Origin: Bryobacterales bacterium | GTDB lineage: Bacteria; Acidobacteriota; Terriglobia; Bryobacterales; UBA6623 | NCBI GenBank assembly: GCA_965214915.1 | Contig: CBDCCP010000002.1 | Coordinates: 766,054 to 830,053 of the forward strand | DNA: 64,000 nt | Direction of reading: 5' to 3' | In this document: positions 14,304 through 64,000 of the stretch, one piece after another | Position numbering within the stretch: position 1 is the first letter of the stretch | Layout: each line of letters opens with the position of its first letter | Translations under genes and position numbers: made by a program | Notes under the pieces: model-generated | Databases searched by the model: none | Told to the model about the DNA's origin: nothing | What the model saw: only the letters and a program-made list of their open reading frames with translations

Positions 14304-16001
14304 ATGGCGAAGGCTGAAGCCTCGGTCGAAGAGTTGGTGGGAATGATCGAACGGGGCGAGTTGCGGCTACCCGAAATGCAGCGCCGCTACGTTTGGCGTT
14401 CGACTCGGGTTCGCGACCTGCTCGATTCGCTCTATCGCGGCTACCCGTCCGGCGCCATTCTCTTGTGGGAGACAGACGAGGATGTCCCGCTACAGGACTT
14501 CGCACTTGAGCAGCAGGGCAATCCCTACCGAAGCAACCGACTATTACTGGATGGGCAGCAGCGGTTGACGTCGCTCTCCGCGGTGATTCGTGGCCAGCCC
14601 GTCGGAGTGCGCGGTCGCCGACGACCGATCGAGATTCTTTTCAATCTGGATCATCCCGAAGACCTCGAGGTCGTGACGGAGGTGAACGAGAACCTGAAGG
14701 ACGACGAACGGATCGAAGACGAAGCAGATTCGACCGACGACGAGCTTCAGAAGCGGTTCAACCGCATGACGTTCGTGGTGGCGACCAGGAAGCTGGAGCA
14801 GCTTCCGCAGTGGGTCAAGGTCTCCGAGGTCTTCAAGAGCGACAGCGACAGACCGTTCCTCAAGCGTGCCGGCATCACCGACCTCGACGACCCACGTGCC
14901 GAAAGGTACAGTAAGCGCCTCTCGCGTCTGCGCGGAGTACGGAAGTACGTCTACCGCATGGACATCCTCGAACGTACATTGTCGTACGACGAAGTCACGG
15001 AGATCTTTGTACGTGTCAACTCACTCGGGGCGAAACTGCGCAGCTCCGACCTTGCGCTGGCTCAGATTACGGCCAAGTGGCGCGGCGCGCTGGAGAGCCT
15101 GCAGGAATACCAGAAACGGTGTGCGACCACAGGCTTCGACCTCGACCTCGGTCTTCATCTACGAAACTTGGTTGCATTCGCGACCGGACAGTCGCGCTTT
15201 CTCACCGTTGGCAACCTCTCTGTGGCGAAGTTGCAGGGATCCTGGAAAGAATGCTTGCGGGGAATGGATTTCGCACTCGACTTCCTCCAGAATAATGCAC
15301 AACTCGACAGCCCGGCTCTGCTCTCGTCGCCGTTTCTGCTCGTGACGCTCGGCTACTACGGGCATCGGAGGCGCTACGAGATCAGCACCAAAGAAGCCGG
15401 GGAACTGCGTCGCTGGTTGCTCGTCGCCAACACCAAGGGACGGTACTCGCGAGGGTCGAGCGAGACGATTCTGGACCAGGATCTTTCGACGCTGCGCCAG
15501 GGTGGCGGAGCAACCGAACTCGTTGACCGCCTACGCTTGCAGGTGGGGCGTCTCGACATTGCGCCGGAGGAGCTCGAAGGCCGCAACCAACGCAGCGCCC
15601 TTTTCAAGACGATGTTCCTCGCTTTCCGCGATGCCAAGGCCCGCGACTGGCGTTCGAACCTCGCCATCGCGCTGGGACACCGCGGGGCTCAACATCGGCT
15701 CCAGTTCCACCACATTTTCCCGAAGGCGGTCTTGAAGGGCAGCTACACCAGTCGTGAGGCCGATGACATCGCCAATCTGGCCTTTATCGGCGGAAAGACC
15801 AATCGCCAGATCAGCGACAAACCTCCGAGCCAGTATTTTCCGCCGTTGATCAGGAAGTCGGGCCTTACGCCATTCCAAGCGCAGTGCATCCCCACCGACA
15901 ACGAACTCCTTGAGGTGGGTACGTACAAGTCGTTTCTCGACGAACGGCGCAGGCTCATCAGCCAGAGACTGAACGAATTCCTCGCTATCTGGCAAGCGTG
16001 A
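14304..16001 (+). CDS. DUF262 (ParB-like NTPase) + C-terminal His-Me finger (DUF1524-like) protein; GmrSD/BrxU/SspE-type nuclease candidate
   Basis: N-terminal ELRLPEMQRRYVWRSTRVRDLLDSLYRGYPSGAILLWE and DGQQRLTS motifs. C-terminal HRLQFHHIFPKAVL...NLAFIGGKTNRQISDKPP motif. Line 14701-14760 hand-counts to 55% G+C versus about 70% in the flanking genes. Confidence 0.8.
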   Translation: MAKAEASVEELVGMIERGELRLPEMQRRYVWRSTRVRDLLDSLYRGYPSGAILLWETDEDVPLQDFALEQQGNPYRSNRLLLDGQQRLTSLSAVIRGQPVGVRGRRRPIEILFNLDHPEDLEVVTEVNENLKDDERIEDEADSTDDELQKRFNRMTFVVATRKLEQLPQWVKVSEVFKSDSDRPFLKRAGITDLDDPRAERYSKRLSRLRGVRKYVYRMDILERTLSYDEVTEIFVRVNSLGAKLRSSDLALAQITAKWRGALESLQEYQKRCATTGFDLDLGLHLRNLVAFATGQSRFLTVGNLSVAKLQGSWKECLRGMDFALDFLQNNAQLDSPALLSSPFLLVTLGYYGHRRRYEISTKEAGELRRWLLVANTKGRYSRGSSETILDQDLSTLRQGGGATELVDRLRLQVGRLDIAPEELEGRNQRSALFKTMFLAFRDAKARDWRSNLAIALGHRGAQHRLQFHHIFPKAVLKGSYTSREADDIANLAFIGGKTNRQISDKPPSQYFPPLIRKSGLTPFQAQCIPTDNELLEVGTYKSFLDERRRLISQRLNEFLAIWQA

Positions 16002-24075: not shown

Positions 24076-26025
24076 ATGGCCAATTTGACCGAGACCCACG
24101 AATTTCAAGCCGAGACCAAGCAACTGCTCGATTTGATGATCCATTCCTTGTACACCAACAAGGAAATCTTCTTGCGGGAGTTGATCTCAAACGCATCGGA
24201 TGCTCTCGACAGACTTCGTTTCGCGGCGTTGACCGATGCGGGCCTGCTGGCAGAAGGAGAAGAGTTGGAGATTCGCCTCGACGTCGATAAGCAGGCGCGG
24301 ACATTGACGGTTCAGGACAACGGCATCGGCATGTCGCGCGAGGAGGTTATCGAGAACATCGGGTCGATCGCCAAATCGGGCACGCGCGAGATGGTCGACA
24401 AGATCGAGGCCGCCAAGGGCGGGGAAGTTCCTCCCGAGCTGATCGGACGCTTCGGCGTCGGTTTCTACTCTGCCTTCATGGCCGCGGACAAGATTACGCT
24501 GGAGACCCGGCGCGCGGGAGAGGCAACTTCCACGCGATGGGAATCCGAGGCCGACGGAACGTACACGCTTGCGGAGGGAGGCCGCTCGAAACGAGGCACG
24601 GCCGTCACCTTGCGCCTGAAGGCCGTGGATGCCGACGCCGGCATCGAAGACTTCACCGACGAGTGGACGCTGGGCCGCATCGTCAAGCGGTATTCCGATT
24701 TCATCGCCTATCCGATCCGGCAGAAGACACAGCGCGAAGAAAAAGAGACGGACGAAAAGGGCATTCTCAAACCCGACGGCAAGACGACCGTCGTCACCGA
24801 AGACAAGACGCTGAACTCAATGAAGCCGATATGGGCGCGGGCCGCGGCGGACGTTAGCGAAGAGGAGCATACGGAGTTCTACAAGCACCTCTCCGGCGAT
24901 TGGAACGAGCCGTTGCTGCACTTGCGCGTGAAGGCGGAAGGCATATCGGAATACGAGTCGCTGCTTTATATTCCCTCGGAGCCGCAGCACGATCTACATG
25001 TCTGGGGAATGGAATTCGGCCTGCAAATCTATGCGCGCCGCGTTTTGATCATGGAGCGTTGCGAAGAAGCCGTGCCGCGCTATCTGCGTTTCGTTTACGG
25101 CGTCGTGGACTCGTCGGACCTGCCGCTGAACATATCTCGGCAGACGCTGCAAGAGAATCGCCACATTGCCCTGATCAACAAGTTTCTGGCGCGGAAAATG
25201 CTGGACGCTCTTGCCGATCTCCAGAAGAACGACGAAGAGAAGTACCTCAAGTTCTGGAAGCATTTCGGGAGCGTGCTCAAGGAAGGCGTCGGGGCGGCGT
25301 TCGAGCACAAGGATCGGCTTACCGCGCTCATGCTGTTCGAATCGTCTCATCATCCCGAAAAGCTTACGACCTTGAAGGAATACGTCGAGCGGTTGCAAGA
25401 GGGGCAGTCGGCGATTTTCTATCTCACCGGAGAATCCCGGTCGATGGTCGAGAATTCGCCGCTGCTAGAGGCTTTTCGCAAGAAAAACTATGAAGTGCTC
25501 TATCTGACAGATCCGGTTGACGAGCTGCTCGTGCAGTATCTGACCGAGTTCGACGGCAAAAAATTGCAATCCGCCGCGAAAGGCGAACTCGACCTCGGCG
25601 ATGAAAAAGAAAAAAAACAGTTGGAGGGAGAGCGTAAGGAGCAGGAAAAGAAATACTCGAGCCTGTTGGATTTACTGGGCAAGAAGCTCGAAAACGATAT
25701 CAAGAAAGTTAGGCTTTCGACGCGCTTGACGGACTCGCCCGCATGCTTGGCCGGCGACGAGCACGATGTGAGTCCGCAGCTTGAGCGGATGTTGCGTGTC
25801 GCGAATCCCGACGGCCCGAAGCAGAAGCGCATTCTCGAGCTCAACGGAGCGCACGAAATCGTCCGCAAGCTGCATGGGCGTTTCGACAAAGACAAGGCGG
25901 ACCCCGTCATCGACGAATATGCGGAGCTGCTCTACGGATATGCGCTGCTGTCCGAAGGCGCGGAACTGCACGATGCGGTAAAATTCAACCGGGCGCTCGC
26001 CGGGTTGATGGCGAAGTCTCTCTGA
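24076..26025 (+). CDS. htpG: Molecular chaperone HtpG (Hsp90)
   Basis: FQAETKQLLDLMIHSLYTNKEIFLRELISNASDALDRLRF, IGRFGVGFYSAFMAADK, and a 649-aa length. Confidence 0.95.
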   Translation: MANLTETHEFQAETKQLLDLMIHSLYTNKEIFLRELISNASDALDRLRFAALTDAGLLAEGEELEIRLDVDKQARTLTVQDNGIGMSREEVIENIGSIAKSGTREMVDKIEAAKGGEVPPELIGRFGVGFYSAFMAADKITLETRRAGEATSTRWESEADGTYTLAEGGRSKRGTAVTLRLKAVDADAGIEDFTDEWTLGRIVKRYSDFIAYPIRQKTQREEKETDEKGILKPDGKTTVVTEDKTLNSMKPIWARAAADVSEEEHTEFYKHLSGDWNEPLLHLRVKAEGISEYESLLYIPSEPQHDLHVWGMEFGLQIYARRVLIMERCEEAVPRYLRFVYGVVDSSDLPLNISRQTLQENRHIALINKFLARKMLDALADLQKNDEEKYLKFWKHFGSVLKEGVGAAFEHKDRLTALMLFESSHHPEKLTTLKEYVERLQEGQSAIFYLTGESRSMVENSPLLEAFRKKNYEVLYLTDPVDELLVQYLTEFDGKKLQSAAKGELDLGDEKEKKQLEGERKEQEKKYSSLLDLLGKKLENDIKKVRLSTRLTDSPACLAGDEHDVSPQLERMLRVANPDGPKQKRILELNGAHEIVRKLHGRFDKDKADPVIDEYAELLYGYALLSEGAELHDAVKFNRALAGLMAKSL

Positions 26026-35607: not shown

Positions 35608-38136
35608 TCACTCGCGGGTAAGAAATTCATCGAGATTCAAAAGGATGCGGCCGATGCCGACCCAAGCGGCGGCTTCGCCGGTGTCGATGTCGTCGAGCGC
35701 CGCCGGAAACCATGCTTTCGCCATCTCCGGGTCGGCTTCGAGCAGCTCCTGCTGTTTGACGAAATAGCCCAACATCTCTTCCTGTTCGCTCACGCGGGGC
35801 GCTCGCGCCAAGCAAAGTTTATAGGCATGGTCGAGACGCTGCTCGAACGCGCCGCCCGGGGTTTCAGTCAAAATCCGCAGGGCCAGGCCCTGAGCGATTT
35901 CCCAGAACACCGGATCGTTCAGCAGATTCAGCGCTTGCAGCGGAGTATTCGAGCGCCCGCGCGTGCAGGAGGCGACATTGCGCTCGCCAAGATCGAAGTT
36001 GGCTAGAAACGGGTACGGCGCAGTCCGCTGATAGTGGATGTAAAGGCCGCGGCGGTAGCGGTCGCTGCCCGCGCTCTCGTTCCATTTTACCGAGCCGGCA
36101 TAGGCCAACTCGGCCACGCCGGCCGGCTGCGCAGGCCGAACGCTCCTGCCGCCGACACGGGGATCCAGCAGCCCCGAGACGGCGAGCGCCGTATCCCGCA
36201 GGCTCTCGGCCGGCAGGCGCAAGCGCACCTGGCGGGCGAGCAGACGATTGCCCGGGTCCTTGCCGGCTAACTCCGGACGGGCATTCGACGACTGGCGGTA
36301 CGCAGCCGAGGTAACGATCAGGCGGTGAATGCGCTTCAGGCTCCAACCCGAGTCGATAAGCTCCGACGCCAGCCAATCGAGCAGATCGGGATGGCTGGGC
36401 TTTTCGCCCCGGAAGCCGAAATCGTTCGTCGTCGATACCAAGCCGACGCCGAAGTATTCCTGCCAGATGCGGTTGACCGCGACTCTTGCCGTCAAGGGAT
36501 TCTCGGCCGAGGCGATCCAACGGGCAAGATCGAGCCGCGTCGGCTGTGCGCCCGCGGGCTGCAGAGGCGGCAGCGCCGAAAGCGCTCCGGGGGCAACCGG
36601 CTCGCCGGGCGCGTCCCATTCGCCGCGCTCGTGAACATGGGTCGAGCGGGGTTCCCGCGATACTTCGATGACGCGCGCCCGGCTCACGTCGGGAAACGAA
36701 TCCACGGCGGCGTTCAGTTCCTTGACCGCGTCTCGAAACCCTGTCGCGGCGTACTCTTCCTTGCCGGTCACGCGGCCGTAGTTGCGCAGAAACCACTCCG
36801 TGACAACGTAGTCGTCGCGTTCGTTGCGCTGTTCGGGCGGCGTCCGCAGGATGCGCTGGCCGTTATCGAGATAGAGGCCGATGATGTCCCAACTCGTATC
36901 CCACTGGTGCTCCACGCCGGGGTTGTCGGCGGCCCAGAGCATTTTCGCCTCCCAGGGCCGCTGCAACTCGCGCACTTTGTATTTCGTGTAGATTTCCGCA
37001 ATCTTGGCGTCGAGATCGGGCTTGGCCCGCAGATAAGGTCCGATTTCGCCTTGCAGCGGCGCGTCGATGTTGACTTCGTCCAGCTCGTTGAAAAAGGCGA
37101 AAAGGCGGTAGTAATCGCGCTGGGGGATCGGATCGAACTTGTGGTCGTGGCAGCGCGCGCACTCGACCGACAGCCCCAGCCAGACCGTGGCGCTCGTATT
37201 GGTGCGGTCAACCACTTCCTCGAAGCGGAACTGCTCGATATCGACGCCGCCCTCGCGATTTTTCAAGGTATTGCGGTAGAAACCGGTAGCCACGCGCTGT
37301 TCGACCGCGGCGCGGGGAAGAAGATCTCCGGCTAGCTGCTCGATGGTGAAGCGGTCGAACGGCATGTCGGCGTTGAGCGCATCGATAACCCAGTGCCGGT
37401 AGCGCCACGCATGAGGGCGCGCCAAGTCTTTCTCGTAGCCGTCCGAGTCCGCATAACGCACCTGATCGAGCCAGGGGGCGGCCCAGCGCTCGCCGAAGTG
37501 TTCCGACCGAAGGAGCCGGTCGACCAACGGCTCATAGCCGCCGGCCGTTTCGTCGCCGTGCGCAGCGGGAGGGAGTCCCGTCAAATCCAGAGACACGCGG
37601 CGCCGCAAAGTGTGCGCGGGGGCTTCGGGAGACGGTTGGATGCCTTCGCGCTCCAACCGCGCCAACACGAAAGCGTCGATCGGATTGCGCGGCCAATCCT
37701 TGCGGCGCGCCTCGGGCACGGCCGGCCGGCGGTTGGGACGGAAAGCCCAGTGCCCGCTGCGGGGCCGCGCCGAGATTGCCGCCGAGGACTCCCACTTTGC
37801 GCCTTGGTCGATCCATTCTCGGAACAGTTCGATCTGCTCGCGCGGCAGCGGCCCGCCGGGCGGCATCTGCTGCAAGCCGTCGAGGCTGGCGAGTCGTTTC
37901 ATCAGCAAGCTTTGGGCGCTGCGGCCCGGCTCGATCGCCGCACCGGACTTGCCGCCGTTCATCGCGTCTTCCCGGCGGTCGAGCCTCAGGCCGTTTTGCT
38001 GCAACGCGGGTCCGTGGCACGCCGTGCAGTTCTGCGCGAGGATCGGCGCGATGTCTTTGGCGAAAGACACTTCGTCCTGGGCGGCTGCCGGCGCAGCCGA
38101 AACGAGCAGACACAGCCAGAGCCGGCGGAGATTCAT
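35608..38136 (-). CDS. DUF1549/DUF1553 (PSCyt/PSD1-type) protein with N-terminal cytochrome-c-like motif
   Basis: The start MNLRRLWLCLLVSAAPAAAQ at 38136 is preferred over the long upstream extension. It shows FAKDIAPILAQNCTACHGP, then DUF1549 (NPIDAFVLARLE) and DUF1553 regions. Its ATG overlaps the sulfatase stop (ATGA). Confidence 0.9.
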   Translation of the reverse strand: MNLRRLWLCLLVSAAPAAAQDEVSFAKDIAPILAQNCTACHGPALQQNGLRLDRREDAMNGGKSGAAIEPGRSAQSLLMKRLASLDGLQQMPPGGPLPREQIELFREWIDQGAKWESSAAISARPRSGHWAFRPNRRPAVPEARRKDWPRNPIDAFVLARLEREGIQPSPEAPAHTLRRRVSLDLTGLPPAAHGDETAGGYEPLVDRLLRSEHFGERWAAPWLDQVRYADSDGYEKDLARPHAWRYRHWVIDALNADMPFDRFTIEQLAGDLLPRAAVEQRVATGFYRNTLKNREGGVDIEQFRFEEVVDRTNTSATVWLGLSVECARCHDHKFDPIPQRDYYRLFAFFNELDEVNIDAPLQGEIGPYLRAKPDLDAKIAEIYTKYKVRELQRPWEAKMLWAADNPGVEHQWDTSWDIIGLYLDNGQRILRTPPEQRNERDDYVVTEWFLRNYGRVTGKEEYAATGFRDAVKELNAAVDSFPDVSRARVIEVSREPRSTHVHERGEWDAPGEPVAPGALSALPPLQPAGAQPTRLDLARWIASAENPLTARVAVNRIWQEYFGVGLVSTTNDFGFRGEKPSHPDLLDWLASELIDSGWSLKRIHRLIVTSAAYRQSSNARPELAGKDPGNRLLARQVRLRLPAESLRDTALAVSGLLDPRVGGRSVRPAQPAGVAELAYAGSVKWNESAGSDRYRRGLYIHYQRTAPYPFLANFDLGERNVASCTRGRSNTPLQALNLLNDPVFWEIAQGLALRILTETPGGAFEQRLDHAYKLCLARAPRVSEQEEMLGYFVKQQELLEADPEMAKAWFPAALDDIDTGEAAAWVGIGRILLNLDEFLTRE

Positions 38137-39617
38137 AAGCGCCTCGCTGCTTCGATTTCGTTCATGCGGCGGCGCAGCGCCCGGTCGAGCCGCTCGACGG
38201 CCTTTCGCACTTTCGGCCGCGGGTCGTCTATCAGATTGCGCTGCTCTCCCGGATCGCTGCTCAAATGATAGAGCTCGTCCATGCCCTCCCTGCTGTCGCG
38301 CACGAGCTTCCATTCCCGGGTGCGCCACATGCGTTGATCCGCCTTCTCGACGTGTTTCTGATTGTATTCGGCATAGAACGCCGTTCGCCACGGGATGCGT
38401 TTTTGCTCGAGCAGCGGCAGAAAGTTCTTGCCGCGGATCGGCGCGCCTTCCGGCAATGCCGCGCCGGCCATGGCCAGCAGAGTCGGAAACCAATCGACAT
38501 TCAGCACGATCTCATCGACTGTCAACCCTGCGCGCAGGCGTTGCGGCCAGCGAACGACCGCCGGAGTCCGCAGGGAGTGGTCGTACATGTTGGCGCGCGG
38601 ACCTCGATTGTCGGTCAGCAGCCAACGCCCGTTGCCCTTGTGCCAGAGTCCATGATGGCTCAGGTTGTAGCCGTGATCGCTACTGAAGACGACGACCGTA
38701 TTATCCGCCGTCCCCGTCTCGTCGAGAACGTCCAAGATGCGGCCTACGTTGCGGTCGACGCTCGCCACCGACGCCAGATATTCGCGCATCATGCGCTTGG
38801 CCCGCGGAATATCGAGCTTGGGGTAGTCGGCCTGAGGCAGTATCGGGTCGAGGCCGCGGAACGGCTTCCAGTCCGCGGCGCTCAACGGCAGCCAGGTTCG
38901 GTCGCCGTCGGGCGTTCTGTTCGCGGTATTGGCGTGCGGCGCCCAGTAGTGAACGTTGACCAGGAAGGGATGTTTTCCGTCCCGTGAGCGAATGAAGCGA
39001 ATCGCCTCGTCGGTCAGAATGTCGGGCGTGTATCCGCGGATGACCTTGACCGCTCCGTCGGATTCCACCTTGGGATCTTTGGAAATGCCCGCTCCGTTGC
39101 GAAAGCCGTAAAACCGGTCGTAGCCGTTGCGCGTGGGCAGATGCTCATCGCGAGAGCCGAGATGCCACTTGCCGATGAACAACGTTTCGTACCCGGCGGC
39201 CTGCAAGATCTTCGGCCACGTCGGAATCGCGGGATCGAGGCCGTTATCGGGTTCGGCGCCCGCATTGAGATAATCGGTGATGCCCAGTTCGGAGCCGTAG
39301 CGACCGGTCATCAAGCCCGCCCGCGACGGGCTGCAAACAGGGGTTGTCGTGAAAGCGTTCGTAAACGCCGCGCCTTCCCTGTAGAGGCGGTCGATGTTCG
39401 GCGTGCGCGCCTGGTTGTTGCCCAAGGCGCCGATGGTCCAGGCGGCCTGATCGTCGGCGTACAGAAAGACGATATTCGGCCGCGGGGCGGCCGCTCCTGT
39501 TATCGCCGTGCTGAGCAGCGCAAGACAGAGATGGCGTTTCGCGGACAACGCTCCCCATTGTACGACAGAGGCCTTCAAATTGAAACCGAATCCGGCGATA
39601 GTGAAATGCGGTTTCAT
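38133..39617 (-). CDS. Formylglycine-type sulfatase
   Basis: PNIVFLYADDQ. Active-site TTPVCSPSRAGLMTG. Typical sulfatase C-terminal region. Confidence 0.9.
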   Translation of the reverse strand: MKPHFTIAGFGFNLKASVVQWGALSAKRHLCLALLSTAITGAAAPRPNIVFLYADDQAAWTIGALGNNQARTPNIDRLYREGAAFTNAFTTTPVCSPSRAGLMTGRYGSELGITDYLNAGAEPDNGLDPAIPTWPKILQAAGYETLFIGKWHLGSRDEHLPTRNGYDRFYGFRNGAGISKDPKVESDGAVKVIRGYTPDILTDEAIRFIRSRDGKHPFLVNVHYWAPHANTANRTPDGDRTWLPLSAADWKPFRGLDPILPQADYPKLDIPRAKRMMREYLASVASVDRNVGRILDVLDETGTADNTVVVFSSDHGYNLSHHGLWHKGNGRWLLTDNRGPRANMYDHSLRTPAVVRWPQRLRAGLTVDEIVLNVDWFPTLLAMAGAALPEGAPIRGKNFLPLLEQKRIPWRTAFYAEYNQKHVEKADQRMWRTREWKLVRDSREGMDELYHLSSDPGEQRNLIDDPRPKVRKAVERLDRALRRRMNEIEAARRL

Positions 39618-44869: not shown

Positions 44870-45646
44870 ATGAAAAAAAAAGCGCCGATCAAGGAGCCTT
44901 ATACGTCTCAGGCCGTGCTGCGCGCGCTCAAAATGCTCGAGGCCCTGGGGCAGTCGCAGGAAGCTCAATCGTTGCAGTCGCTTTGCGAGCGGCTCGGCTT
45001 GGCCAAGGCGTCGGCGTTCCGGCTGATGCATACCTTGGAGGAGGTCGGATACGTCGGCAAGGATGCTTCCGGCGGGTATTTCGCCGTCGGTCGCGGGTCG
45101 CTGCAGTCCGCCCGCTACCGCCGTCAACTGCCCGAAGCGGCGAGTCCCGAGATGCTTCGCCTGCGCCGGCGGTTTCGCGAAACGGTCAGCTTGGCGGCGC
45201 TCTTCGACAATCACGTAGAAGTCGTCGAAGTCTTTGAAAGCCCGGAGTTTATGCGCATGAGCAACACCGTGGGACGCATCCTGCCGCCGCACGCCAGCTC
45301 GCTCGGCAAGGCCATCGCCGCATTTCAAAGCGAGCAGCGGCGCGAGACGCTGGTGCGCAGCTACGGAATCTACCGCTATACCGCGAAGACCATCGTCGAT
45401 GAGAGCCGCTTGCAGCAGGAATTCGAAGAAATTCGGCGTCGGGGCCACGCAATCGATGCGGAAGAAAACACTATGGGCGGCCGTTGCCGCGGCGTGCCGC
45501 TGCTCGATGGGTCGGGCACGGCCTTCGCGGCATTGAGCGTCTCCATGCCGATCAGCCGCCACAAGACCGAGAGCATGCAGCAGCGCATTGTCGAAGCGCT
45601 CAAGGAAAGCGCCGAAAATATCGTCCGCGAGTTCGGCATGACTTAG
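44870..45646 (+). CDS. IclR-family transcriptional regulator
   Basis: N-terminal wHTH region (VLRALKMLEALG...QSLCERLGLAKASAFRLMHTLEEVGYV) and C-terminal IclR effector domain (..LPPHASSLGKAIAAF.., AIDAEENTMG..C..VPL). Confidence 0.9.
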   Translation: MKKKAPIKEPYTSQAVLRALKMLEALGQSQEAQSLQSLCERLGLAKASAFRLMHTLEEVGYVGKDASGGYFAVGRGSLQSARYRRQLPEAASPEMLRLRRRFRETVSLAALFDNHVEVVEVFESPEFMRMSNTVGRILPPHASSLGKAIAAFQSEQRRETLVRSYGIYRYTAKTIVDESRLQQEFEEIRRRGHAIDAEENTMGGRCRGVPLLDGSGTAFAALSVSMPISRHKTESMQQRIVEALKESAENIVREFGMT

Positions 45647-51237: not shown

Positions 51238-52690
51238 ATGAGAAAGGCAGCCCGTCGACTATATCGTATAAACCGACCCTTTCACAGGCAGCAGCGCGGC
51301 GGGAAGTACGTCCAGCTATTCTTCACTGTTTGCGCCGCGCTGTCGGCTTCGGTCGCGCTGGGGCAGACCGCCGTCCCGTGGACGATCGAGACAGTCGCCG
51401 GCGCCGGATTCAGCGGCTACGGCGGGGACGGTGGCCCGGCGGCGCAGGCGCGGTTGAATCGCCCCGTCGGCGTGGCGCTGGACGGAGCGGGCAACCTGTA
51501 CATCGCCGATGGTTTCAACCACCGCATCCGCAAGGTGGACGCAGCCGGCGTCATCTCCACCGTGGCGGGCGACGGGACGGCCAGCTACGGCGGGGACGGC
51601 GGCCCGGCGGCGCAGGCGCTGTTGAGTCGACCCGCCGACGTGGCGGTGGACGGAGCGGGCAACCTGTACATCGCCGATACATACAACCACCGCATCCGCA
51701 AGGTGGACGCGGCCGGCGTCATCTCCACCGTGGCGGGCGCCGGGAGGGAAGGCTACGGCGGGGACGGCGGCCCGGCGGCGCAGGCGTGGTTGAATCAACC
51801 CAGCGGCGTGGCGGTGGACGGAGCGGGCAACCTGTACATCGGCGATCAGCACAACCACCGCATCCGCCGCCTGCGGCCGACGCCCCGGATATCTGCGGGC
51901 GGCATCGTGCTCGCTACCGGCACTCCTGTCGTGAGCCGCATCTCCCCCAACGCCATCGTTTCCGTCTTCGGACAGGATTTCGCGCCGCCGGGGAGGCAGG
52001 AGTCGAGCGCTCTGGACGCCGCAGGCAGAGTTGCCGACAGACTGGCCGGCGTCTGCCTGGAGATCGGCGGCAGGCGCACCCTGTTCACCTACATCGACGG
52101 CAAGCGCGCCCCGCTGTTCTACGTCTCCCCCACGCAGATCAACGCTCAAGTCCCCCACGATCTGACGCCGGGGCGGACGCAAGCGGCGGTCATCGACGGC
52201 TGCGGCTCGGACGCCGAATATCGCGGCCCGGAGACGCCGGTTGAGATCGGCGCGGTCTCGCCGGCCTTCTTCAACTTCGTGGACAACGGCGACGGGCGCA
52301 ACCCGCTCGTAGCCATGCACGGCGGCGGCCCCCGCCCTGGCCGGCGCGCCGGGCCTGCTGCCCGGAGCGGAGTTCACGCCCGCCGAGCCGGGCGCGATCG
52401 TCACCCTGTTCGGAACCGGCTTCGGAGCCGTCGAGCCGCCATTGGAAACGGGTCAAATCCCGGGCGCCGCGGCCAACTTGGTCAACGCGGCCGCCTTTAC
52501 CGTAGGCGGCATCGCGGTTTCCCCTGAGGATGTCCTCTACGCCGGCGCGTCGCCCTGCTGCGCCGGGCTCTACCAATTCACGCTGCGCCTGCCTGCCGAT
52601 CTGCCCGACGGCGACGCGCCCGTCATCGCCACGGCGCAAGGCGTTTCGACCCCTGAGGGGCCGTACCTTACCGTCCGCCGCCGGCAATGA
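51238..52690 (+). pseudogene. Secreted NHL-repeat protein with TIGR03437-like (Solibacter-type) C-terminal domain, interrupted by a frameshift in a C5 run
   Basis: Three NHL blades (GPAAQA.LN.P.GVA.DGAGNLYIAD..NHRIRKV) are followed by an IPT-like C-terminal domain. Frame 1 turns to R/P nonsense after MHGGGP (52329-52333 = CCCCC). The next frame continues sensibly (ALAGAPGLLPGAEFTPAEPGAIVTLFGTGFGAVEPPLETGQIPG...AGLYQFTLRLPADLPDG...) to stop 52690. Confidence 0.75.
51412..51870 (+). repeat. About 2.7 tandem copies of a 168-bp (56-codon) unit encoding NHL blades
   Basis: The string GGCGGGGACGG(T/C)GGCCCGGCGGCGCAGGCG recurs at 51421, 51589 and 51757 (period 168). The flanking sequence is near-identical at the nucleotide level. 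Confidence 0.8.
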
Positions 52691-54397: not shown

Positions 54398-56323
54398 ATG
54401 GCGAGTGAAAAACAAGTGTCGCGGCGCAAGATTCTGGTAGGCGCGGCGGCGTCGGCCGCCGTTCCGACTGCGGCCGCGGCGGCAACGGAACGCGACCGCG
54501 GCATCCTGATTCCGCAAGAAGTGCCGGCGGCGTTGAGCGAAGAGCCGCGTCCGGCCGACTTCCCCATGACGGGAGCGCAGGTCTTCGCCAAGGCGTGCAA
54601 GGCGGAGGGTCTCGCGGCGCTGTTCTGCGCGCCCGGAAACTACACCGTCATCAATGCCATCGCCTCAGAGGGCATTCCCAGTTACGGCGGCAGGACCGAA
54701 GGCATGATGTGCTCCGCCGCCGACGGTTTCTCGCGCGTGACCGGCGAGGTCGCCGCCGCGTCGGGCACCGAAGGCCCCGGTTTCACCAACATGATCATGA
54801 GCGTCGCCGCGGCCAACGCGGCGCGCACGCCGCTGTTGTTGCTGGCGAGCAATATGACCGTGGGCCTGGACGACACGGAGCAGGCGATCCAGCGCGGGTA
54901 TCAGCAACCCACGACCGTCGGGCTGAGAAAGTACGGCAAGCGGCTCATCGACCCGCCCCGCGTCCATGAGTACGCGGCCTATGCTTTCCGCCAGTTGAAG
55001 ACAGGGGTGCCGCGGCCGGTCCATCTCGATTTTCCGGGCGAGGTCGCGCGGGCGGTGTTCGAGTCTCCCGAAGACCTGGCCTACTTCCACGACCGCGCCA
55101 AGTACCGCACCGAAGCGAAGCCCCATCCGGCGAAGAAAGACATCGAACGAGCCGCGCGCATGATCGCCGCAGCGGAGCGGCCCATTATCGTCGCCGGCGC
55201 GGGAGTTTTTTACAGCAAGGCCTGGGATGCGCTGCAGGCGGCGGCCGAAAAGGCCGATATCGCCGTTGTCGAATCCGGCCCCAGCCGCGGCCACTTCGGC
55301 GACGATCACCCGCTGTCGGCGAATACCGCGCCCGACGCGCTGCTGAGCGCCGACCTCGTCGTTCTCTTGGGGCAGTACGTGATGCCGACGATTGGGGAAT
55401 ACGCCTTCGACCCCGATGCCCGTTACATCCGCATCGACCCCGACCCGGCGGACATCGGCCGCAATCTGCCGATCGACCTGGGCATCGTAAGCTGCGAAAA
55501 AGCCGCGCTCGAAGCGTTGGCCGACACGCTCAAAAAGGCGCGGAGGCCCGCTTGGCGGGACGAGCTGGCCGCCGCCCGCAAGGCGTTTGCGGAGCAGAAC
55601 GAGGAATATTACAGGCTCGGCTTGCAGCACAGCAAGGCGGCGCAAGCGGTCCACCCGGCGGTGATCGCGCGCGAGCTTGGAGATTTTCTGTACAACGCCG
55701 AGCTCGACCCCAAGCAAACGACGGTGGTGTCGGGCGGCTACGGGATCGCGCGCTACACGCGGCGGTTCCTGCAGGCGCACCGTCCCGGACAAATCTGCAA
55801 CGGCGCCTATCAGTACGGCGCGATCGGGCCGGACGTGGGCTATACGGTCGGCGCCGGCGCGGCGGTCCAACAGGGAGTCGGTCCGCACAAGCCGTACAAA
55901 GGAGCGCCGGTCGTTGCCGTTACCGGCGACGCGGGCTTTGCCTACTCCGGCATGGAGCTCGAAACGCTGTCGAAGTACCGCATCCCCGCGGTGGTGATCG
56001 TCTACAACAACAACGCCTGGGGCGTTTGGCGCAGCGGCCAAACCGGCGGCAGAGCCAACACGGCGCGGGCGCAGCACATGTATCTCTTCCAGGAGAATCT
56101 GCGCTACGAGAAGATCGCCGAGGCGCTGGGCGGACGCGGCGAGTACGTCACCGCCGCCGCGGATTTCCGTCCGGCGCTGGAGAGAAGCTACCAAGCCGCG
56201 GCCGCGCGAGGCGTCTCCACCGTGATCAATTGCCAGGCGATCAAGGAATTCTGGAGCTCGCGGGACTATCCGCCGGGTTTGCTGCAGAAAGTCGAGCCGG
56301 GCTGCATGGCTTACTACCACTGA
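54398..56323 (+). CDS. Thiamine-diphosphate-dependent enzyme (acetolactate synthase / pyruvate oxidase superfamily) with twin-arginine signal
   Basis: [31 protein letters not shown] leader. N-terminal Pyr domain ([24 protein letters not shown]...[10 protein letters not shown]). ThDP-binding motif [33 protein letters not shown]. Confidence 0.85.
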
Positions 56324-58364: not shown

Positions 58365-58647
58365 CGTGCCGTCAGTGTAGCGCCGCGCGGGGGGCGCTTG
58401 CAGCAGCCGATATTCTAAGAAAGGGCGGAAATCCGGCGCGTCGCAAGGGCGGAACCGCGGGTAACCACGCTATGCTCGGATTCGCCTAGCCGATGGGTTA
58501 GTATGTCTTTGTCCCGACCCGGTCTTGTTGTCGATGCAAACGGTCGATGCAAACGAAGGAGGATGCAGGAGCCGCAACGCAGCGCGCGCGATGAGAGACG
58601 GTTCGGCGTCGTTGCATTACCGGCCGAGGGGTGGAAGGGCCATTGAC

Positions 58648-59901
58648 ATGGAGATGAATAGACGCCTTGCCTTGAAAGGGATCGGGGGCCTGCTGACGCT
58701 TCCCCTCTTGGAATCCGACGCCGCCGCCGCTCAGCCTCCGCCTACGCGGTTCTTGGTCGTGGGCAACCCGCTGGGGATGCATCCCGATCACTTCTTTCCA
58801 ACAGAATTCGGGAAGTCTTTCACGTTTCCCCAGACCCTTCGATCTCTCGAATGGCTTCGCGATCGACTCACGATCCTGTCTCACACGGATCATGGGATGA
58901 ACAACGGTCATGGCCGCGAGATATCGTTTCTGAACGGCGTTCTTCCCGAGAACGGTTCGGCCTACTCCGAGCGAAACGTCTCAGTAGATCAAGTGATGGT
59001 CCGCCGCACGCATGGGCGCGTACGCTTTCCGTCGGTCCATGCAGCTCTGGAAAACGGGATTCGGATGAGCTGGAATGCCAATGGCGTCGATCTGAAGCCG
59101 ATTACGGACCCGCATAGACTGTTCGACCACCTGTTTCTCAACCTGACCGCCGAGCAGCGAACGGTCCGCAAGCAGTTGATCGCGCGCAACGGCAGCATTC
59201 TGGACACGGTGGGCGAGCAGTTAGCCGGCTTGCAGCGGAGAGCCGGCAGACGGGATCGGGAGCGGTTGGATCAGTACGCGACTTCGATTCGCGAGTTGGA
59301 AGCGAGCTTGGCGGACCGCAGCGAGTGGGTTGACCGCGACAAGCCGCAGTTCGATATCTCGCGACATTTCTCCGGCTCCGAGACGACCATCGGCAACCGA
59401 TACGACGCGATCTTCGACATGGTTGCGTATGCATTCGAAACCGATCTCACGCGCGTCGCCACGGTGGCCTTCCCCAACGAACTCGGATATACCGACATCG
59501 ACGGCGTGACGCGCGGCTACCACGCATGCACCCATAACGGCAAGAAGGAAGAAGTGATTGCCGAGCTGGTTGCGATCGAGTCGTTCCAAATCGAGCAGTT
59601 GTCACGTTGCCTGCGGAAGCTGGACTCTGTTCGGGAACCCCAGGCAGACGGCACGCTGCTCGATCGCACGATCGTCTTGTTCGGCAGCGGAATGGGATAC
59701 GGCGGCACCCACTCGAACCGGAACCTTCCGATCCTGGTCGCCGGCGGAGGCTTCCGGCATTTGGGACACGTCGATACCCGCAGCGGGAGCGGCTCCAACA
59801 TGCCATTGTGCAACCTCTACGTCACGCTGCTGCAGCGCTTCGGCGTGGAGAGGGAGCGGTTCAACACGAGCACGGGCGCTTTCGAGTTACGTTATGGGTA
59901 G
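58648..59901 (+). CDS. DUF1552 domain protein
   Basis: MEMNRRLALKGIGGLLTLPLLES Tat-like leader. The C-terminal pattern LLDRTIVLFGSGMGYGGTHSNRNLPILVAGGG...NLYVTLLQRFGV is typical of DUF1552. Confidence 0.85.
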   Translation: MEMNRRLALKGIGGLLTLPLLESDAAAAQPPPTRFLVVGNPLGMHPDHFFPTEFGKSFTFPQTLRSLEWLRDRLTILSHTDHGMNNGHGREISFLNGVLPENGSAYSERNVSVDQVMVRRTHGRVRFPSVHAALENGIRMSWNANGVDLKPITDPHRLFDHLFLNLTAEQRTVRKQLIARNGSILDTVGEQLAGLQRRAGRRDRERLDQYATSIRELEASLADRSEWVDRDKPQFDISRHFSGSETTIGNRYDAIFDMVAYAFETDLTRVATVAFPNELGYTDIDGVTRGYHACTHNGKKEEVIAELVAIESFQIEQLSRCLRKLDSVREPQADGTLLDRTIVLFGSGMGYGGTHSNRNLPILVAGGGFRHLGHVDTRSGSGSNMPLCNLYVTLLQRFGVERERFNTSTGAFELRYG

Positions 59902-62446
59902 CTTGCGCCGCGCGGCGATGGCGCTGGCCGCGTTCGGCGCCATGCAATCGGCTTCCGGCGACGACCGCATCGCCGCGCCCGGCTTGGAATTGCTGAAGAC
60001 TCATTGTTCGTCCTGTCACGGCGGCGCGGAGCCGAAGGGCGGATTCCGGGTCCGTTCTCTGGCCGAAAACCAGGATTGGCACAACGCCGCTCTGTGGCGA
60101 AAGAGCTTGGAATACGTCCGAGCCGAGTTCATGCCCCCGGCGGAAGCGGGTCGGCTTGCGGCAACGGATCGCCGCCGCATCGTCGCTTTTCTCGAAGGTC
60201 GGCTTCGCGGCGGGGGAGAGCGAACCGGCGAGGCGAGCGGAGGCGCGCCGCGGCGGCTCAACAATCGCGAGCTCGCCAACAGTGTCCGCGACGTGCTGAT
60301 GATCGAAGACGTCGGGACGCATCGGCCGCTGGCCGATCTGCTTGGCGACACGCTGCACGACGGCTTCGACACGAACGCCGACGCGCTGGGGATGAGCCAG
60401 TTTCACCTGGAGCAGTACATCGAGGCGTTTCGCAAAGTCGTCGACGCTGCGATCCTTTCCGGCGAACGGCCCGAGACGCGCCGCTACGAAGTCACGGCCG
60501 GCGACATGCGCATGACGAGCCTGTCTCAGAGGAGGAGACAAGAGCGAGCGAATCGGACAGCGGAGAGCATAGACTTTCTCGATCCGAGATTGCGCGTGTA
60601 CTTCGCGAATTTCGAAAGCGCGCCGGCGACAGGGAGATATCGCATCAAGATCCGCGCCGCGGCCAAGGATCGCGGGGTGTACGACTCCGCCGAGACGGGC
60701 ATCTACGACGGTGACCCGATTCGCTTGAGCGTTCACTTGGGTGACCGTATCCGGGTTTTCGCCCTTGCCGACGAGACGCCGACCGAGATCGAGCTGGACG
60801 AATGGATCGCGGCGGGCACGCGGCTTGAACTGTCGTATCCGACGGACGGTTTGCGGCTGCGCGGCAACGGGAACTTCAAGTTTCAGTTTTCGATCGCCCA
60901 CGATCACATTCAGAAGACCGACCCGAAGCTGTATGCGGCGATCCTGAAAAGGAATCTACCCAAGGCTCCGGCGCGAACGGCGAAAAATCCGAGACACTGG
61001 AGCCACTGGACCGAGCACTGGCAAGGGCCGCGGCCGCGCTTGTTCAGCGCCGCGATCGAAGGTCCGCTGTATGCAAGCTGGCCGCCGAAGCGGCAGGCCG
61101 CTTTGCTGGGAGAGTCTCCCAAAGCGCAGAATGCCGCCTCCATCTTGCGCCCGATCGCGGAAAGGGCCTGGCGTCGCGAGTTGCGCGACGGCGATCTGGA
61201 CGCGATCGTTCGTTTCGTTGCGTCCAGGGCCGCGGAGGGAATCTCGGCGGAGAGGCATATCGAAGCGCTGAAGGAAGGCATCGTTGCGATTCTCGCTTCG
61301 CCTTCGTTCCTGCTGGTGAACTCGGGTGACGGCGCCCCCTCTGACCGATTCGCGTCGAAGCTCAGCTATTTCCTCGGCAGCACGATTCCCGATTCGCACA
61401 TCCGTGAAGCTGCTCGCAGTGGCGAGCTGGCGACGTTCGAGGCGGTGCGCGCCGAAGTCCTCCGCCGGTTCGAGCGCTCCGCAGCGGACGAGTTCGTGCG
61501 GGAGTTCCCGCATGCGTGGCTGGAGTTGGATCGCATCAACTTCATGGCGCCGGATCCGGATCGTTTTCCCCTGTACGCCCGCAAGCGGTTGAGCGAGGAC
61601 ATGGTTGACGAGGCGTTGCGGTTTTTTCGGCATGCGCTGGAAAACAACCTTCCCGTCCCCGAGTTGTTATCGGCCGACTACACATTTCTGAACGCGGATC
61701 TGGCCAAGGTCTACGGGGTCGACGACGCGCCGCAGGACTCGCAGTTGCGCAAATACACGTTTGCCGACGGACGGCGGGGCGGGCTGCTCGGCATGGGGGC
61801 TTTCCTGACCCTGACGGCGGACAGCCTTTCGACGTCGCCCATTCATAGAGCGGTTTACGTGATGGAGAAGTTCCTGGGGATTCGACCGGCGCCGCCTCCG
61901 GACGACGTCGAGATCGCCGAACCCGATGTCCGTCAGGCCAAGACGATCAAGGAAATCCTCGCCGCGCACACAGCCGACCCAACTTGCGCGTCCTGCCACC
62001 GCAGCATCGATCCGTACGGATACGCTTTCGAGAACTTCGACTCGACCGGCGCGTGGCGCGACGAATACACGATGCATATTGCCGCCAAGCCGTCGCGGGA
62101 AGCGCTGCTGGAGATCGAGCAGCAGGACCGGCAGCGAGCCGCACGGGGATTGGCGCCCGTGGAGAGACCCTGGGAGCGCGCTCCGATTCCGGTTGACGCC
62201 GCTTCGCGGTTTCCTGACGGCGCCCCGTATGACGGCATCGTCGGATACCGTCAGCGCCTCCTGGGCGACGAGTACCGAGACCGATTCGTCCGCTGCTTCA
62301 TCCAGAAGCTGCTGACCTACGCGAACGGCAGAGAATTCGAAGATTCGCCGGAAATCGAGAGCATCCTGGCGAGGTCCGCGGAAAACGACTACCGGATTCT
62401 CGACACGATCGCAGCCGTAATCGACAGTCCGTTGTTCCGCGAATAG
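59894..62446 (+). CDS. DUF1587/DUF1592/DUF1595/DUF1588/DUF1585-type multidomain protein with N-terminal CxxCH
   Basis: ATG 59894 overlaps the DUF1552 stop by 8 nt. Signal peptide. LLKTHCSSCHGG. C-terminal CASCHRSIDPYGYAFENFD (DUF1588) and FVRCFIQKLLTYANGR (DUF1585) signatures. Confidence 0.85.
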   Translation: MGSLRRAAMALAAFGAMQSASGDDRIAAPGLELLKTHCSSCHGGAEPKGGFRVRSLAENQDWHNAALWRKSLEYVRAEFMPPAEAGRLAATDRRRIVAFLEGRLRGGGERTGEASGGAPRRLNNRELANSVRDVLMIEDVGTHRPLADLLGDTLHDGFDTNADALGMSQFHLEQYIEAFRKVVDAAILSGERPETRRYEVTAGDMRMTSLSQRRRQERANRTAESIDFLDPRLRVYFANFESAPATGRYRIKIRAAAKDRGVYDSAETGIYDGDPIRLSVHLGDRIRVFALADETPTEIELDEWIAAGTRLELSYPTDGLRLRGNGNFKFQFSIAHDHIQKTDPKLYAAILKRNLPKAPARTAKNPRHWSHWTEHWQGPRPRLFSAAIEGPLYASWPPKRQAALLGESPKAQNAASILRPIAERAWRRELRDGDLDAIVRFVASRAAEGISAERHIEALKEGIVAILASPSFLLVNSGDGAPSDRFASKLSYFLGSTIPDSHIREAARSGELATFEAVRAEVLRRFERSAADEFVREFPHAWLELDRINFMAPDPDRFPLYARKRLSEDMVDEALRFFRHALENNLPVPELLSADYTFLNADLAKVYGVDDAPQDSQLRKYTFADGRRGGLLGMGAFLTLTADSLSTSPIHRAVYVMEKFLGIRPAPPPDDVEIAEPDVRQAKTIKEILAAHTADPTCASCHRSIDPYGYAFENFDSTGAWRDEYTMHIAAKPSREALLEIEQQDRQRAARGLAPVERPWERAPIPVDAASRFPDGAPYDGIVGYRQRLLGDEYRDRFVRCFIQKLLTYANGREFEDSPEIESILARSAENDYRILDTIAAVIDSPLFRE

Positions 62447-62550
62447 GCGCCGCGCAAGCTCATGACCACCACAAAGCCGTCGATCACGACCGCTCTGCGC
62501 CAGCGCCGGCCGGGGGCCGGTAAAGGCTTTGAAGTGCCTTTGAGCGGCGG

Positions 62551-63426
62551 TTAAACGGCGTTTAACTCCCTATTCCGTGAGCTTCGAGCAGCGGTCTTTC
62601 CACTCCGCGCCCTGTCTTGCTCTCCACTCTCCGGCGGCTGGCCGCTATTTTTCTTGCCGACAAGCTGCCAAGTATCCTTCCAGCCTCGGAAAACGCTTGT
62701 TACGAGAAGGTATCCGGAGCGCATGATGCTGGGGGAGGGGAGTTTTAGAGATATAAGATCGTCAATACCTCTTAACTCCAATACTTCGAGATCGAGATAT
62801 TTGGAGAGTTGAGTCAAGTCATCTAAAACATATTCCCTGACATGTCCTGTCCAGGGCCCTGGAGACCAGTAAAAAGACTCGAAGGGAGGCATATTCGTTT
62901 TTCCGAATAATAAATGTAAGCGCTTCCTGACATTTCCTGCATTGGGGACCGTCACGAACAGAAGCCCTCCCGGTTTAGTCAACTCAAGTAGTTCATTGAG
63001 AAAAACACGCGGAGAATCATGGAGATGTTCCAAGACATGGTGCATCATTACCATGTCGAAGGAACTCTTTTCGTAGGGCAGCCCCCCCCCCCCCCCGCTT
63101 ATCTGCTTAAAATCAATGCCGAATTTTTCAGCGAATGAAGTTATCGGTTCTATCTCCCCGGGTTTTGCGTCTTGCAAATTGTCGAAGGCGGAGAGACGGA
63201 ACCCAAGAGATTGCAAGACAGCCGCCTTGTGGCACGTTCCACAACCGACATCCAGGATGTTGCTTCCGGGCTTCAGATATCGCAGGCACGTGGTCGCAAC
63301 ATTCCGTAATGCGATTGGTTGCGATTCGGTTCGAAGCTCTATGCCACCGAGCGGAAACGCCGCCGTTGTGTGTCGAATTGCTTCTTCGATTCGCTCTTTC
63401 ATGCCAATATCCATGCCTGCAACCAT
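62551..63426 (-). CDS. Class I SAM-dependent methyltransferase in a low-GC islet, containing a G15 tract
   Basis: Motif I NILDVGCGTC. Acidic residue after beta-2 (LSAFD). Motif FDMVMMHHVLEHL. GGLLFVTVPN. The start is ambiguous (ATGs at 63426, 63414, 63402; the ORF is open to 63534). Line 62761-62820 hand-counts to 40% G+C. Confidence 0.8.
   Translation of the reverse strand: MVAGMDIGMKERIEEAIRHTTAAFPLGGIELRTESQPIALRNVATTCLRYLKPGSNILDVGCGTCHKAAVLQSLGFRLSAFDNLQDAKPGEIEPITSFAEKFGIDFKQISGGGGGLPYEKSSFDMVMMHHVLEHLHDSPRVFLNELLELTKPGGLLFVTVPNAGNVRKRLHLLFGKTNMPPFESFYWSPGPWTGHVREYVLDDLTQLSKYLDLEVLELRGIDDLISLKLPSPSIMRSGYLLVTSVFRGWKDTWQLVGKKNSGQPPESGEQDRARSGKTAARSSRNRELNAV
63082..63096. repeat. 15-nt C homopolymer (G15 on the coding strand) inside the methyltransferase gene, encoding GGGGG
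   Basis: Counted directly: g at 63081, then nine C and six C, followed by gctt. The translation is FKQISGGGGGLPYEK. Confidence 0.95.
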
Positions 63427-63537
63427 GAGGGGAAAACTTCGCAACCGGGTCTTTCCTAGATTATCATGGAATGCCGAGAATTCTATCGGCGGTACTCCGT
63501 TCGCTATGCCGGGGGCGGAGCGCTGCTTCCACACTAA

Positions 63538-64000
63538 CTACGCCGTCCGGCGGCGGGCTTCTTCCAACAGGCGCTTGGCGCGGTCGGGATTGTAAACGCC
63601 GCAAGGGCAGAATCGCGCCAGGGTAGCGGCGGCCTGCTCGGGCGCGCGGCGGCCTTCCCGAACCATGTCCAGCATTTTGCGGGCCATGTTGAACGACACC
63701 ATGCCGTGCCCGCACATGGTCGAGAGTTGGAGAACCTGAGAATTCGGCAGGTGATCGTGGGGGTCGGCGAAGCCCAGCGAGTATTCGACGCTGTGGCGGT
63801 GGATGCCGCAGCATTCGGCGACTTCTTTCGCGCCCTCGACCGAGGCGCTGATGTTGACCGAGAGTCCGAGATCGGCGGCGATGACGTCGCGCAGGCAGGC
63901 CTCGGCCTTCTCTCGGGAATCGAAGACAGCGGCCGCCGTGCCGGGCTTCTTGACTTCGGCAATGACGCCTTCCCAGTCGGGGTCGGCGCCGCGGCGCCAG
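63538..64000 (-). CDS. Conserved-looking hypothetical protein, C-terminal 153 aa only (5' end beyond window), Cys-rich
   Basis: This third minus frame is not in the ORF track because no start lies in the window. It translates to WRRGADPDWEGVIAEVKKPGTAAAVFDSREKAEACLRDVIAADLGLSVNISASVEGAKEVAECCGIHRHSVEYSLGFADPHDHLPNSQVLQLSTMCGHGMVSFNMARKMLDMVREGRRAPEQAAATLARFCPCGVYNPDRAKRLLEEARRRTA, with stop TAG at 63540-63538. The two listed minus-frame ORFs here are S/P/R-rich nonsense. Confidence 0.6.
   Translation of the reverse strand, partial: WRRGADPDWEGVIAEVKKPGTAAAVFDSREKAEACLRDVIAADLGLSVNISASVEGAKEVAECCGIHRHSVEYSLGFADPHDHLPNSQVLQLSTMCGHGMVSFNMARKMLDMVREGRRAPEQAAATLARFCPCGVYNPDRAKRLLEEARRRTA

Follow-up and report, generated by a model that had tools for sequence, protein, structure and literature searches.

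The 64-kb window analyzed here (64,000 nt of contig CBDCCP010000002.1 from a Bryobacterales bacterium) contains, near its right end, a gene for a predicted class I S-adenosylmethionine (SAM)-dependent methyltransferase that carries a run of 15 guanines (G15) in its reading frame. The gene is of foreign composition, and the run falls in a loop of the modeled protein and is missing from the relatives compared. With about even confidence, we read it as a recently acquired orphan methyltransferase gene with a slippage-prone G15, which would be a contingency locus in effect but a non-selected by-product rather than an evolved switch. The features concerned are listed by position in the window (GC, guanine plus cytosine content; aa, amino acids).

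63082 to 63096, minus strand: putatively slippage-prone G15, read as GGG five times (Gly103-Gly107 in the 283-aa product).
62551 to 63402, minus strand: predicted class I SAM-dependent methyltransferase coding sequence, 283 aa from ATG 63402 (start of the closest homologue, Pfam, invariant residues).
63232 to 63258, minus strand: SAM-binding motif I, ILDVGCGTC, strand 1 and glycine-rich loop; D51, G53, and G55 are invariant in the family alignment (A1).
63061 to 63120, minus strand: strand 3 (GIDFKQIS) and the variable connector to strand 4, with the tract inside the connector (AlphaFold model).
63022 to 63060, minus strand: motif FDMVMMHHVLEHL, covering strand 4 plus the helix after it; missing from every out-of-frame variant.
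62657 to 63420, no strand assigned: core of the low-GC foreign segment, GC 0.496; the only part homologous (74.8% nucleotide identity) to positions 308 to 1080 of L081, the contig with the closest relative.

The tract reads C15 on the plus strand and G15 on the coding strand, where it is preceded by motif I and followed by FDMVMMHHVLEHL; coordinates and reading frame confirmed the in-frame position between these two motifs that a preliminary description of the sequence had given. It starts at +307 of the 852-nt coding sequence, that is, in the middle of the gene. In the 64 kb it is the sole homopolymer longer than 9 nt, the runners-up being A9 (44873-44881) and A8 (25610-25617), and a scan of the window for simple repeats revealed no second notable one. 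Dinucleotide-preserving shuffles contained a mean of 0.07 C12 matches per window versus the four overlapping matches observed. The repeat criterion for contingency loci is a G/C run of at least about 7-8 nt within a promoter or reading frame, and G15 within a coding sequence lies above it. The glycine codons outside the tract are mixed (GGA 9, GGC 5, GGG 4, and GGT 3).

In silico translation of length variants gave products of 117-118 aa for G14 and G17 and of 127-128 aa for G13 and G16, all ending before strands 4-7 and the C-terminal domain; G12, G15, and G18 remained in frame (282-284 aa). The proposed loss of the protein upon a change by ±1 base was thus borne out, and, if the tract is real, switching would be a near-certain mechanical consequence; we infer slippage and its rate. 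Proven polyG loci of Campylobacter jejuni have a modal length of 9, and long tracts mainly delete: from G8 to G11 mutability rises 10-fold to 4 × 10−3 per division with a 23:1 deletion bias, and switching rates for G7-G11 are 1 × 10−4 to 4 × 10−3 per division (PMC3401435). In mismatch-repair-proficient Neisseria meningitidis, phase-variation frequencies of 1-3 × 10−5 were given for G10-G12 (PMC3401435). A G15, if real, should therefore be highly unstable with a bias toward shortening, and if that instability holds, the tract must be young, selected, or mis-assembled.

In the AlphaFold2 model, numbered as in database entry P0001, strand 3 comprises residues 111-114, strand 4 residues 129-135, and the loop between them residues 115-128, with the tract at residues 117-121. 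No other part of the family varies as much in length as this connector (10-21 aa across relatives); it has 13 aa in 72 of the 91 relatives parsed, 16-21 aa in the close clade, and 15 aa in the window protein. The family consensus around the site is x-G-G-x-LPF, and a glycine run longer than three was found in P0001 alone among 120 relatives. At the nucleotide level, none of 13 homologue loci had a run of 8 nt or more at the site; the comparison covers the family level, with no conspecific copies among the sequences compared. Pairwise DNA alignment placed the G15 columns exactly on an all-purine 15-mer of the closest gene, GGGGAAAGAGGAGAG, followed by a 3-nt indel. The idea of a conserved switch did not survive the comparison, as homologues carry non-repetitive glycine-rich or charged linkers (close-clade connectors GERGEP, GKGGGDKES, RKSGADADEAA, and EQNSGGDGKVF), so that the tract is specific to this copy; such linkers had been named in the preliminary description as a finding that would speak against its interpretation. 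With the N-terminal 107 aa as query, a search for frameshifted variants returned three candidates and no match, and it also missed P0001 itself.

Assignment of the protein to the class I SAM-dependent methyltransferases, already suggested in the preliminary description, was upheld by profile and structure searches. Pfam returned Methyltransf_23 with 59.4 bits (cut-off 27, E = 4.5 × 10−16) and Methyltransf_11 with 46.3 bits (cut-off 21.2), and a profile search of the PDB gave class I methyltransferases at E ~1 × 10−9. The AlphaFold2 model showed a seven-stranded Rossmann-like fold (predicted local distance difference test score 81, predicted template modeling score 0.80), which Foldseek matched to many class I methyltransferases with a probability of 1.00, E values down to 2.7 × 10−12, and 13-21% identity. 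The acidic residue ending strand 2 is D74 (SAFD), invariant in A1. NCBIfam contained no equivalog at or above cut-off. On these sequence and model data the window protein is a predicted class I SAM-dependent methyltransferase. Its family is small, with 60 clusters (50% identity) at E ≤ 1 × 10−30 among 1.84 billion representatives, and shows conserved C-terminal motifs of its own (N-x-RKR, GHVREY, and WKD[ST]W).

A more distant clade (54-58% identity) was found in surface-polysaccharide loci in 4/4 contexts examined, together with genes for GT4/GT2 glycosyltransferases, Bac_transf, Polysacc_synt_2, DegT, and Wzz/Wzy/Wzx/Poly_export. The substrate is probably a sugar or glycan, with O-methylation as the best guess because the distant relatives occupy such loci, or another small molecule. 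DNA, which had been listed as a possible substrate, is unlikely on both sequence and model grounds: no N6_Mtase or DNA_methylase-type matches were obtained, and the sequence and fold matches are all to small-molecule-type class I enzymes, so that a DNA methyltransferase heading a phasevarion was rejected. A role as a defense-system component was also rejected, the sole PADLOC match being a weak generic one to a methyltransferase domain (mad2, 32 bits). Matches in PHROGs were weak and generic as well.

All 35 invariant columns of A1 are kept in the window protein, and the ratio of nonsynonymous to synonymous substitution rates (dN/dS) versus the L081 copy is ~0.19; because of both, the gene is judged from its sequence to be intact and under purifying selection. 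Its composition sets it apart from the host. The 900-nt stretch from 62601 is the GC minimum of the 64 kb (0.503; mean 0.638, standard deviation 0.031), and the GC content at third codon positions (GC3) is 0.54 versus 0.73-0.91 in 37 host-like open reading frames (ORFs). Earlier hand counts were reproduced exactly (GC 0.40 for 62761-62820 and 0.70 for 12961-13020). The low-GC islet, drawn at first from 62447 to 63537, held for ~62620-63537 but not for 62447-62550, which is host-like (GC 0.68).

The closest relative (68% amino acid and 74.8% nucleotide identity) lies on the 3-kb Logan contig L081, where it is itself an islet, the gene having a GC content of 0.507 within flanks of 0.625. The L081 flanks showed no homology to those of the window and are non-syntenic. 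No methyltransferase relative above 68% amino acid identity was found, and the gene is missing from relatives of the host; contigs of species-representative genomes contained relatives at ≤52% identity only, and Joint Genome Institute (JGI) metagenomes at ≤48% only. P0001 stands alone in its 90% cluster. The neighboring host gene for a thiamine pyrophosphate (TPP) enzyme (54398-56323) falls into a 92%-identical cluster of 26 sequences, and its named matches at 78-79% identity are metagenome-assembled genomes (MAGs) of Bryobacterales and Acidobacteriia, in keeping with the Acidobacteriota host assumed at the outset. Foreign composition, a nearest homologue in non-syntenic flanks, and host relatives without a copy together argue for horizontal acquisition, as had been proposed, and a recent, lineage-private import of the methyltransferase gene appears well supported by the sequence comparisons.

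True family members in species-representative genomes belong to Gemmatimonadaceae, Rubrobacteraceae, Pseudonocardiaceae, Cloacimonadota, Syntrophaceae, Terriglobales, Ozemobacteraceae, and Ignavibacteria, a patchy spread over hosts of at least eight lineages. Close-clade copies are orphans in unrelated contexts, namely within a nuo operon (nuoC/nuoD) and beside toxin-antitoxin genes. The window copy is an orphan, too; no glycan genes were found near it, and its neighbors encode DUF1552 and PSD/PSCyt proteins, a sulfatase, the TPP enzyme, and an enoyl-CoA hydratase. Neither an integrase nor a tRNA was found as a mobility signature at the islet. Insertion scars, target-site duplications, and terminal inverted repeats around it were sought with no convincing result, and phage or plasmid cargo was rejected (no phage match, and plasmid matches at 30-40% identity only, in the collections searched).

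A 65%-identical copy is wedged between nuoC and nuoD on two contigs (L082:4598-5954, metagenome contig ENA ERZ23495646 scaffold_720; L083:653-2009, Logan SRR18249234). It is flanked by two small ORFs, of 81 and 89 aa in L082 and, by the gene calls made for L083, of 81 and 112 aa there; on visual inspection the L082 pair resembles HicB, and the nuoA-N operon is otherwise complete. A function as Complex I assembly factor, suggested by the position of P0004 between nuoC and nuoD, was set aside, the context having been seen in one lineage only and looking more like an insertion.

The following sequence of events would account for these observations. A bare ~0.9-kb foreign methyltransferase gene would recently have entered the genome of a Bryobacterales-like acidobacterium, between unrelated genes. 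In this copy only, the purine-rich codons of the permissive loop between strands 3 and 4 would have become a pure (GGG)5, likely by A-to-G changes in a weakly constrained loop and subsequent homogenization by replication slippage. Slipped-strand mispairing by ±1 base would then truncate the product to 117-128 aa, before strand 4 and the substrate domain, with loss of activity; a second slip would restore it, and changes by ±3 bases would merely resize a tolerant loop. If the assembly is right, the population should be a mixture of ON and OFF cells, and such switching would have come about without selection for it. Four points weigh against this account. The exact tract length is that of the assembled sequence, from which slippage is predicted. 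The substrate assignment leans on gene neighborhoods of relatives only 54-58% identical. A pure in-frame single-codon run in an otherwise conserved gene would also fit a selected switch. Finally, a G15 should decay fast by deletion, so that its persistence requires a recent origin, selection, or an assembly error.

An evolved contingency locus, as proposed in the preliminary description, would be a selected stochastic ON/OFF switch of surface-glycan (or other) methylation, a form of bet-hedging in the face of phage, predators, or changing surfaces; we regard it as unlikely. The in-frame tract with early truncation upon ±1 base agrees with it, as do the pure GGG run in a gene with otherwise mixed glycine codons and the purifying selection on an intact remainder. 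The distant family members in the four polysaccharide clusters (Wzx/Wzy/Wzz, glycosyltransferase, and Bac_transf genes) point the same way, and in C. jejuni it is surface-modifying enzymes that undergo phase variation. In the capsule locus of that species, cj1420c and cj1426c have mid-gene tracts and a similar gene size (PMC4965091). However, none of the 120 relatives and none of the homologue loci examined has the tract, the 64 kb holds no second long simple repeat, and the orphan copy has no glycan partner genes. With 15 nt the run exceeds the modal 9 of proven loci and falls into the deletion-dominated range, and it is located mid-gene, away from the 5' end; an N-terminal enrichment of repeats in species apparently tuned for phase variation was described by Lin and Kussell (PMC3315296). 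We likewise give little credence to the specific version in which a free-living soil acidobacterium uses a selected switch of an imported glycan or small-molecule methyltransferase, with the tract perhaps in the same loop as the C. jejuni polyG by convergence.

A sequencing or assembly artifact, by which the run has the wrong length or composition and the true sequence is, for example, a mixed purine stretch like GGGGAAAGAGGAGAG, also seems improbable. The source contig is 1.70 Mb long and relatives have contigs of 5-8.5 Mb; megabase contigs suggest long-read metagenome assemblies. A G15 is beyond the homopolymer length that long-read consensus resolves reliably; for Nanopore R10.4 consensus, homopolymers are reliable only below 11 nt (PMC9262707). 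The run, moreover, fills the same 15 columns as the all-purine 15-mer of the closest gene. Against an artifact, the frame is exact and the flanks are conserved on both sides, which under random length would have a 1-in-3 chance. Large genes of the window (962-1094 aa) show no breaks, and no run of 6-9 nt disrupts a frame, which argues for high consensus quality. Six A-to-G miscalls inside 15 nt would be unusual, and long-read errors usually alter the length of real homopolymers rather than create them. Protein-level selection for a flexible penta-glycine linker, with the DNA repeat being without significance, is very improbable: the family consensus at the site already contains two glycines (x-G-G-x-LPF) and the loop between strands 3 and 4 lies next to the cofactor site of class I methyltransferases, but such selection would not require GGG five times over where the rest of the gene mixes its glycine codons, and no relative has more than three glycines here.

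Further features that concern the gene model are the following.

63444, minus strand: alternative start TTG, 297 aa (as in database entry P0001).
63534, minus strand: alternative start GTG, 327 aa.
63403 to 63537, minus strand: leader from the stop of the upstream gene to the likely start codon, GC 0.54.
63538 to 63999, minus strand: partial upstream gene with the C-terminus ...CPCGVYNPDRAKRLLEEARRRTA, no Pfam match.
62447 to 62550 (or to 62560), no strand assigned: intergenic region where the PSD/PSCyt (DUF1592-type) gene and the methyltransferase gene converge, GC 0.68.

A single ORF on the minus strand (62551-63534) covers the GC dip. P0001 is 100% identical to the window protein, with the start placed at TTG 63444. 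The true start is most likely ATG 63402 with a 283-aa product, rather than GTG 63534 or TTG 63444, because P0002, the closest homologue, has its start codon aligned with this position (MKERIEE...) and nucleotide homology to the closest relative sets in only ~18 nt upstream. At the other end, homology to all close relatives ceases near 62620-62632, and the final ~27 codons (62551-62631), which are not matched in homologues, extend into GC-richer, host-like sequence. The leader is not homologous to other loci; neither a sigma-70-like promoter on the minus strand nor a terminator was found in it. The partial upstream gene, on the same strand, has its stop 3 nt ahead of the most upstream candidate start of the methyltransferase gene, so the two may be co-transcribed. 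The convergent intergenic region at 62447 is strongly structured (minimum free energy −56.6 kcal/mol, z = −2.87) without a U-tract and may act as a bidirectional transcription stop.

Several observations concern the rest of the window. A second low-GC islet considered at 24.7-25.2 kb proved to be htpG (Hsp90; 24076-26025, plus strand; GC 0.54-0.55), whose GC3 of 0.74 is host-like and which is therefore a native gene. At 11786-14172 (plus strand), a cytochrome c ORF (11786-12580) overlaps a pyrroloquinoline quinone (PQQ)-dehydrogenase ORF (11917-14172) in a different frame; the PQQ domain starts at residue 258 of the latter, and two tandem genes are the simplest explanation and a better one than an indel error with frameshift. 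A GmrSD_N (DUF262) type IV restriction-like protein, a candidate defense gene against modified DNA, is encoded at 14304-16001 (plus strand), ~47 kb from the methyltransferase gene, and no link between the two was seen. The region 26376-62446 is rich in Planctomycete-type PSD/PSCyt proteins (35608-38493; 59558-62446, paired with the DUF1552 gene at 58525-59901) and also encodes three sulfatases and a TonB-dependent-like outer-membrane barrel, which suggests a locus for the use of sulfated polymers. A 168-nt tandem repeat at 51416-51867 (2.7 copies, 90% matches) corresponds to the NHL repeats of the 51238-52527 protein.

An intragenic homopolymer in the gene of a modification enzyme is a known kind of element; the unusual part is the host. 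Nearly all documented cases of homopolymer-driven phase variation are, to our knowledge, from host-adapted bacteria. If verified and shown to switch, the G15 would provide a test case both for whether contingency loci operate in free-living soil bacteria and for how they arise, in this case from a permissive, purine-rich loop of a gene newly acquired. Before a long homopolymer in a long-read assembly is interpreted biologically, it should be confirmed in the reads; the present case is one tract in one MAG-like assembly.

The predicted enzyme resembles generic class I methyltransferases (PDB 3l8d, 3cc8, 3mgg, and 2p7h) in its Rossmann-like fold, motif I of the GxGxG type, the acidic residue after strand 2, and an LPF...FD segment before strand 4. 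It differs from the solved structures by identities of only 13-21%, the nearest being structural-genomics entries without assigned function, and from generic members by the C-terminal motifs of its own family. With phasevarions of type I/III restriction-modification systems it shares a methyltransferase gene interrupted by a simple repeat, but neither a DNA-methyltransferase family or motif nor a restriction or specificity partner gene was found here. A likeness in gene layout exists to cj1420c and cj1426c of C. jejuni, which we take to be methyltransferase genes. In both species a G run lies mid-gene within the frame of a ~260-280-aa gene, at +307 of 852 nt here, and one-base slippage would produce ON and OFF states, in the present case in silico. 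The C. jejuni tracts are G9 at +393 of 771 nt in cj1420c and G10 at +294 of 849 nt in cj1426c (PMC4965091). In that species, tracts recur across strains and form a phasome of ~29 loci in a low-GC, host-adapted background without MutS/MutL (PMC3401435), whereas the window has one private G15 in a high-GC, free-living soil lineage and in an orphan gene outside glycan clusters. As a G-tract ON/OFF switch by replication slippage outside the classic pathogens, the one in a pilus gene cluster of the gut commensal Bifidobacterium breve is comparable with the candidate described here; it affects pili and was shown by maximum-depth sequencing (PMC9187656), while the present tract is known from assembled sequence.

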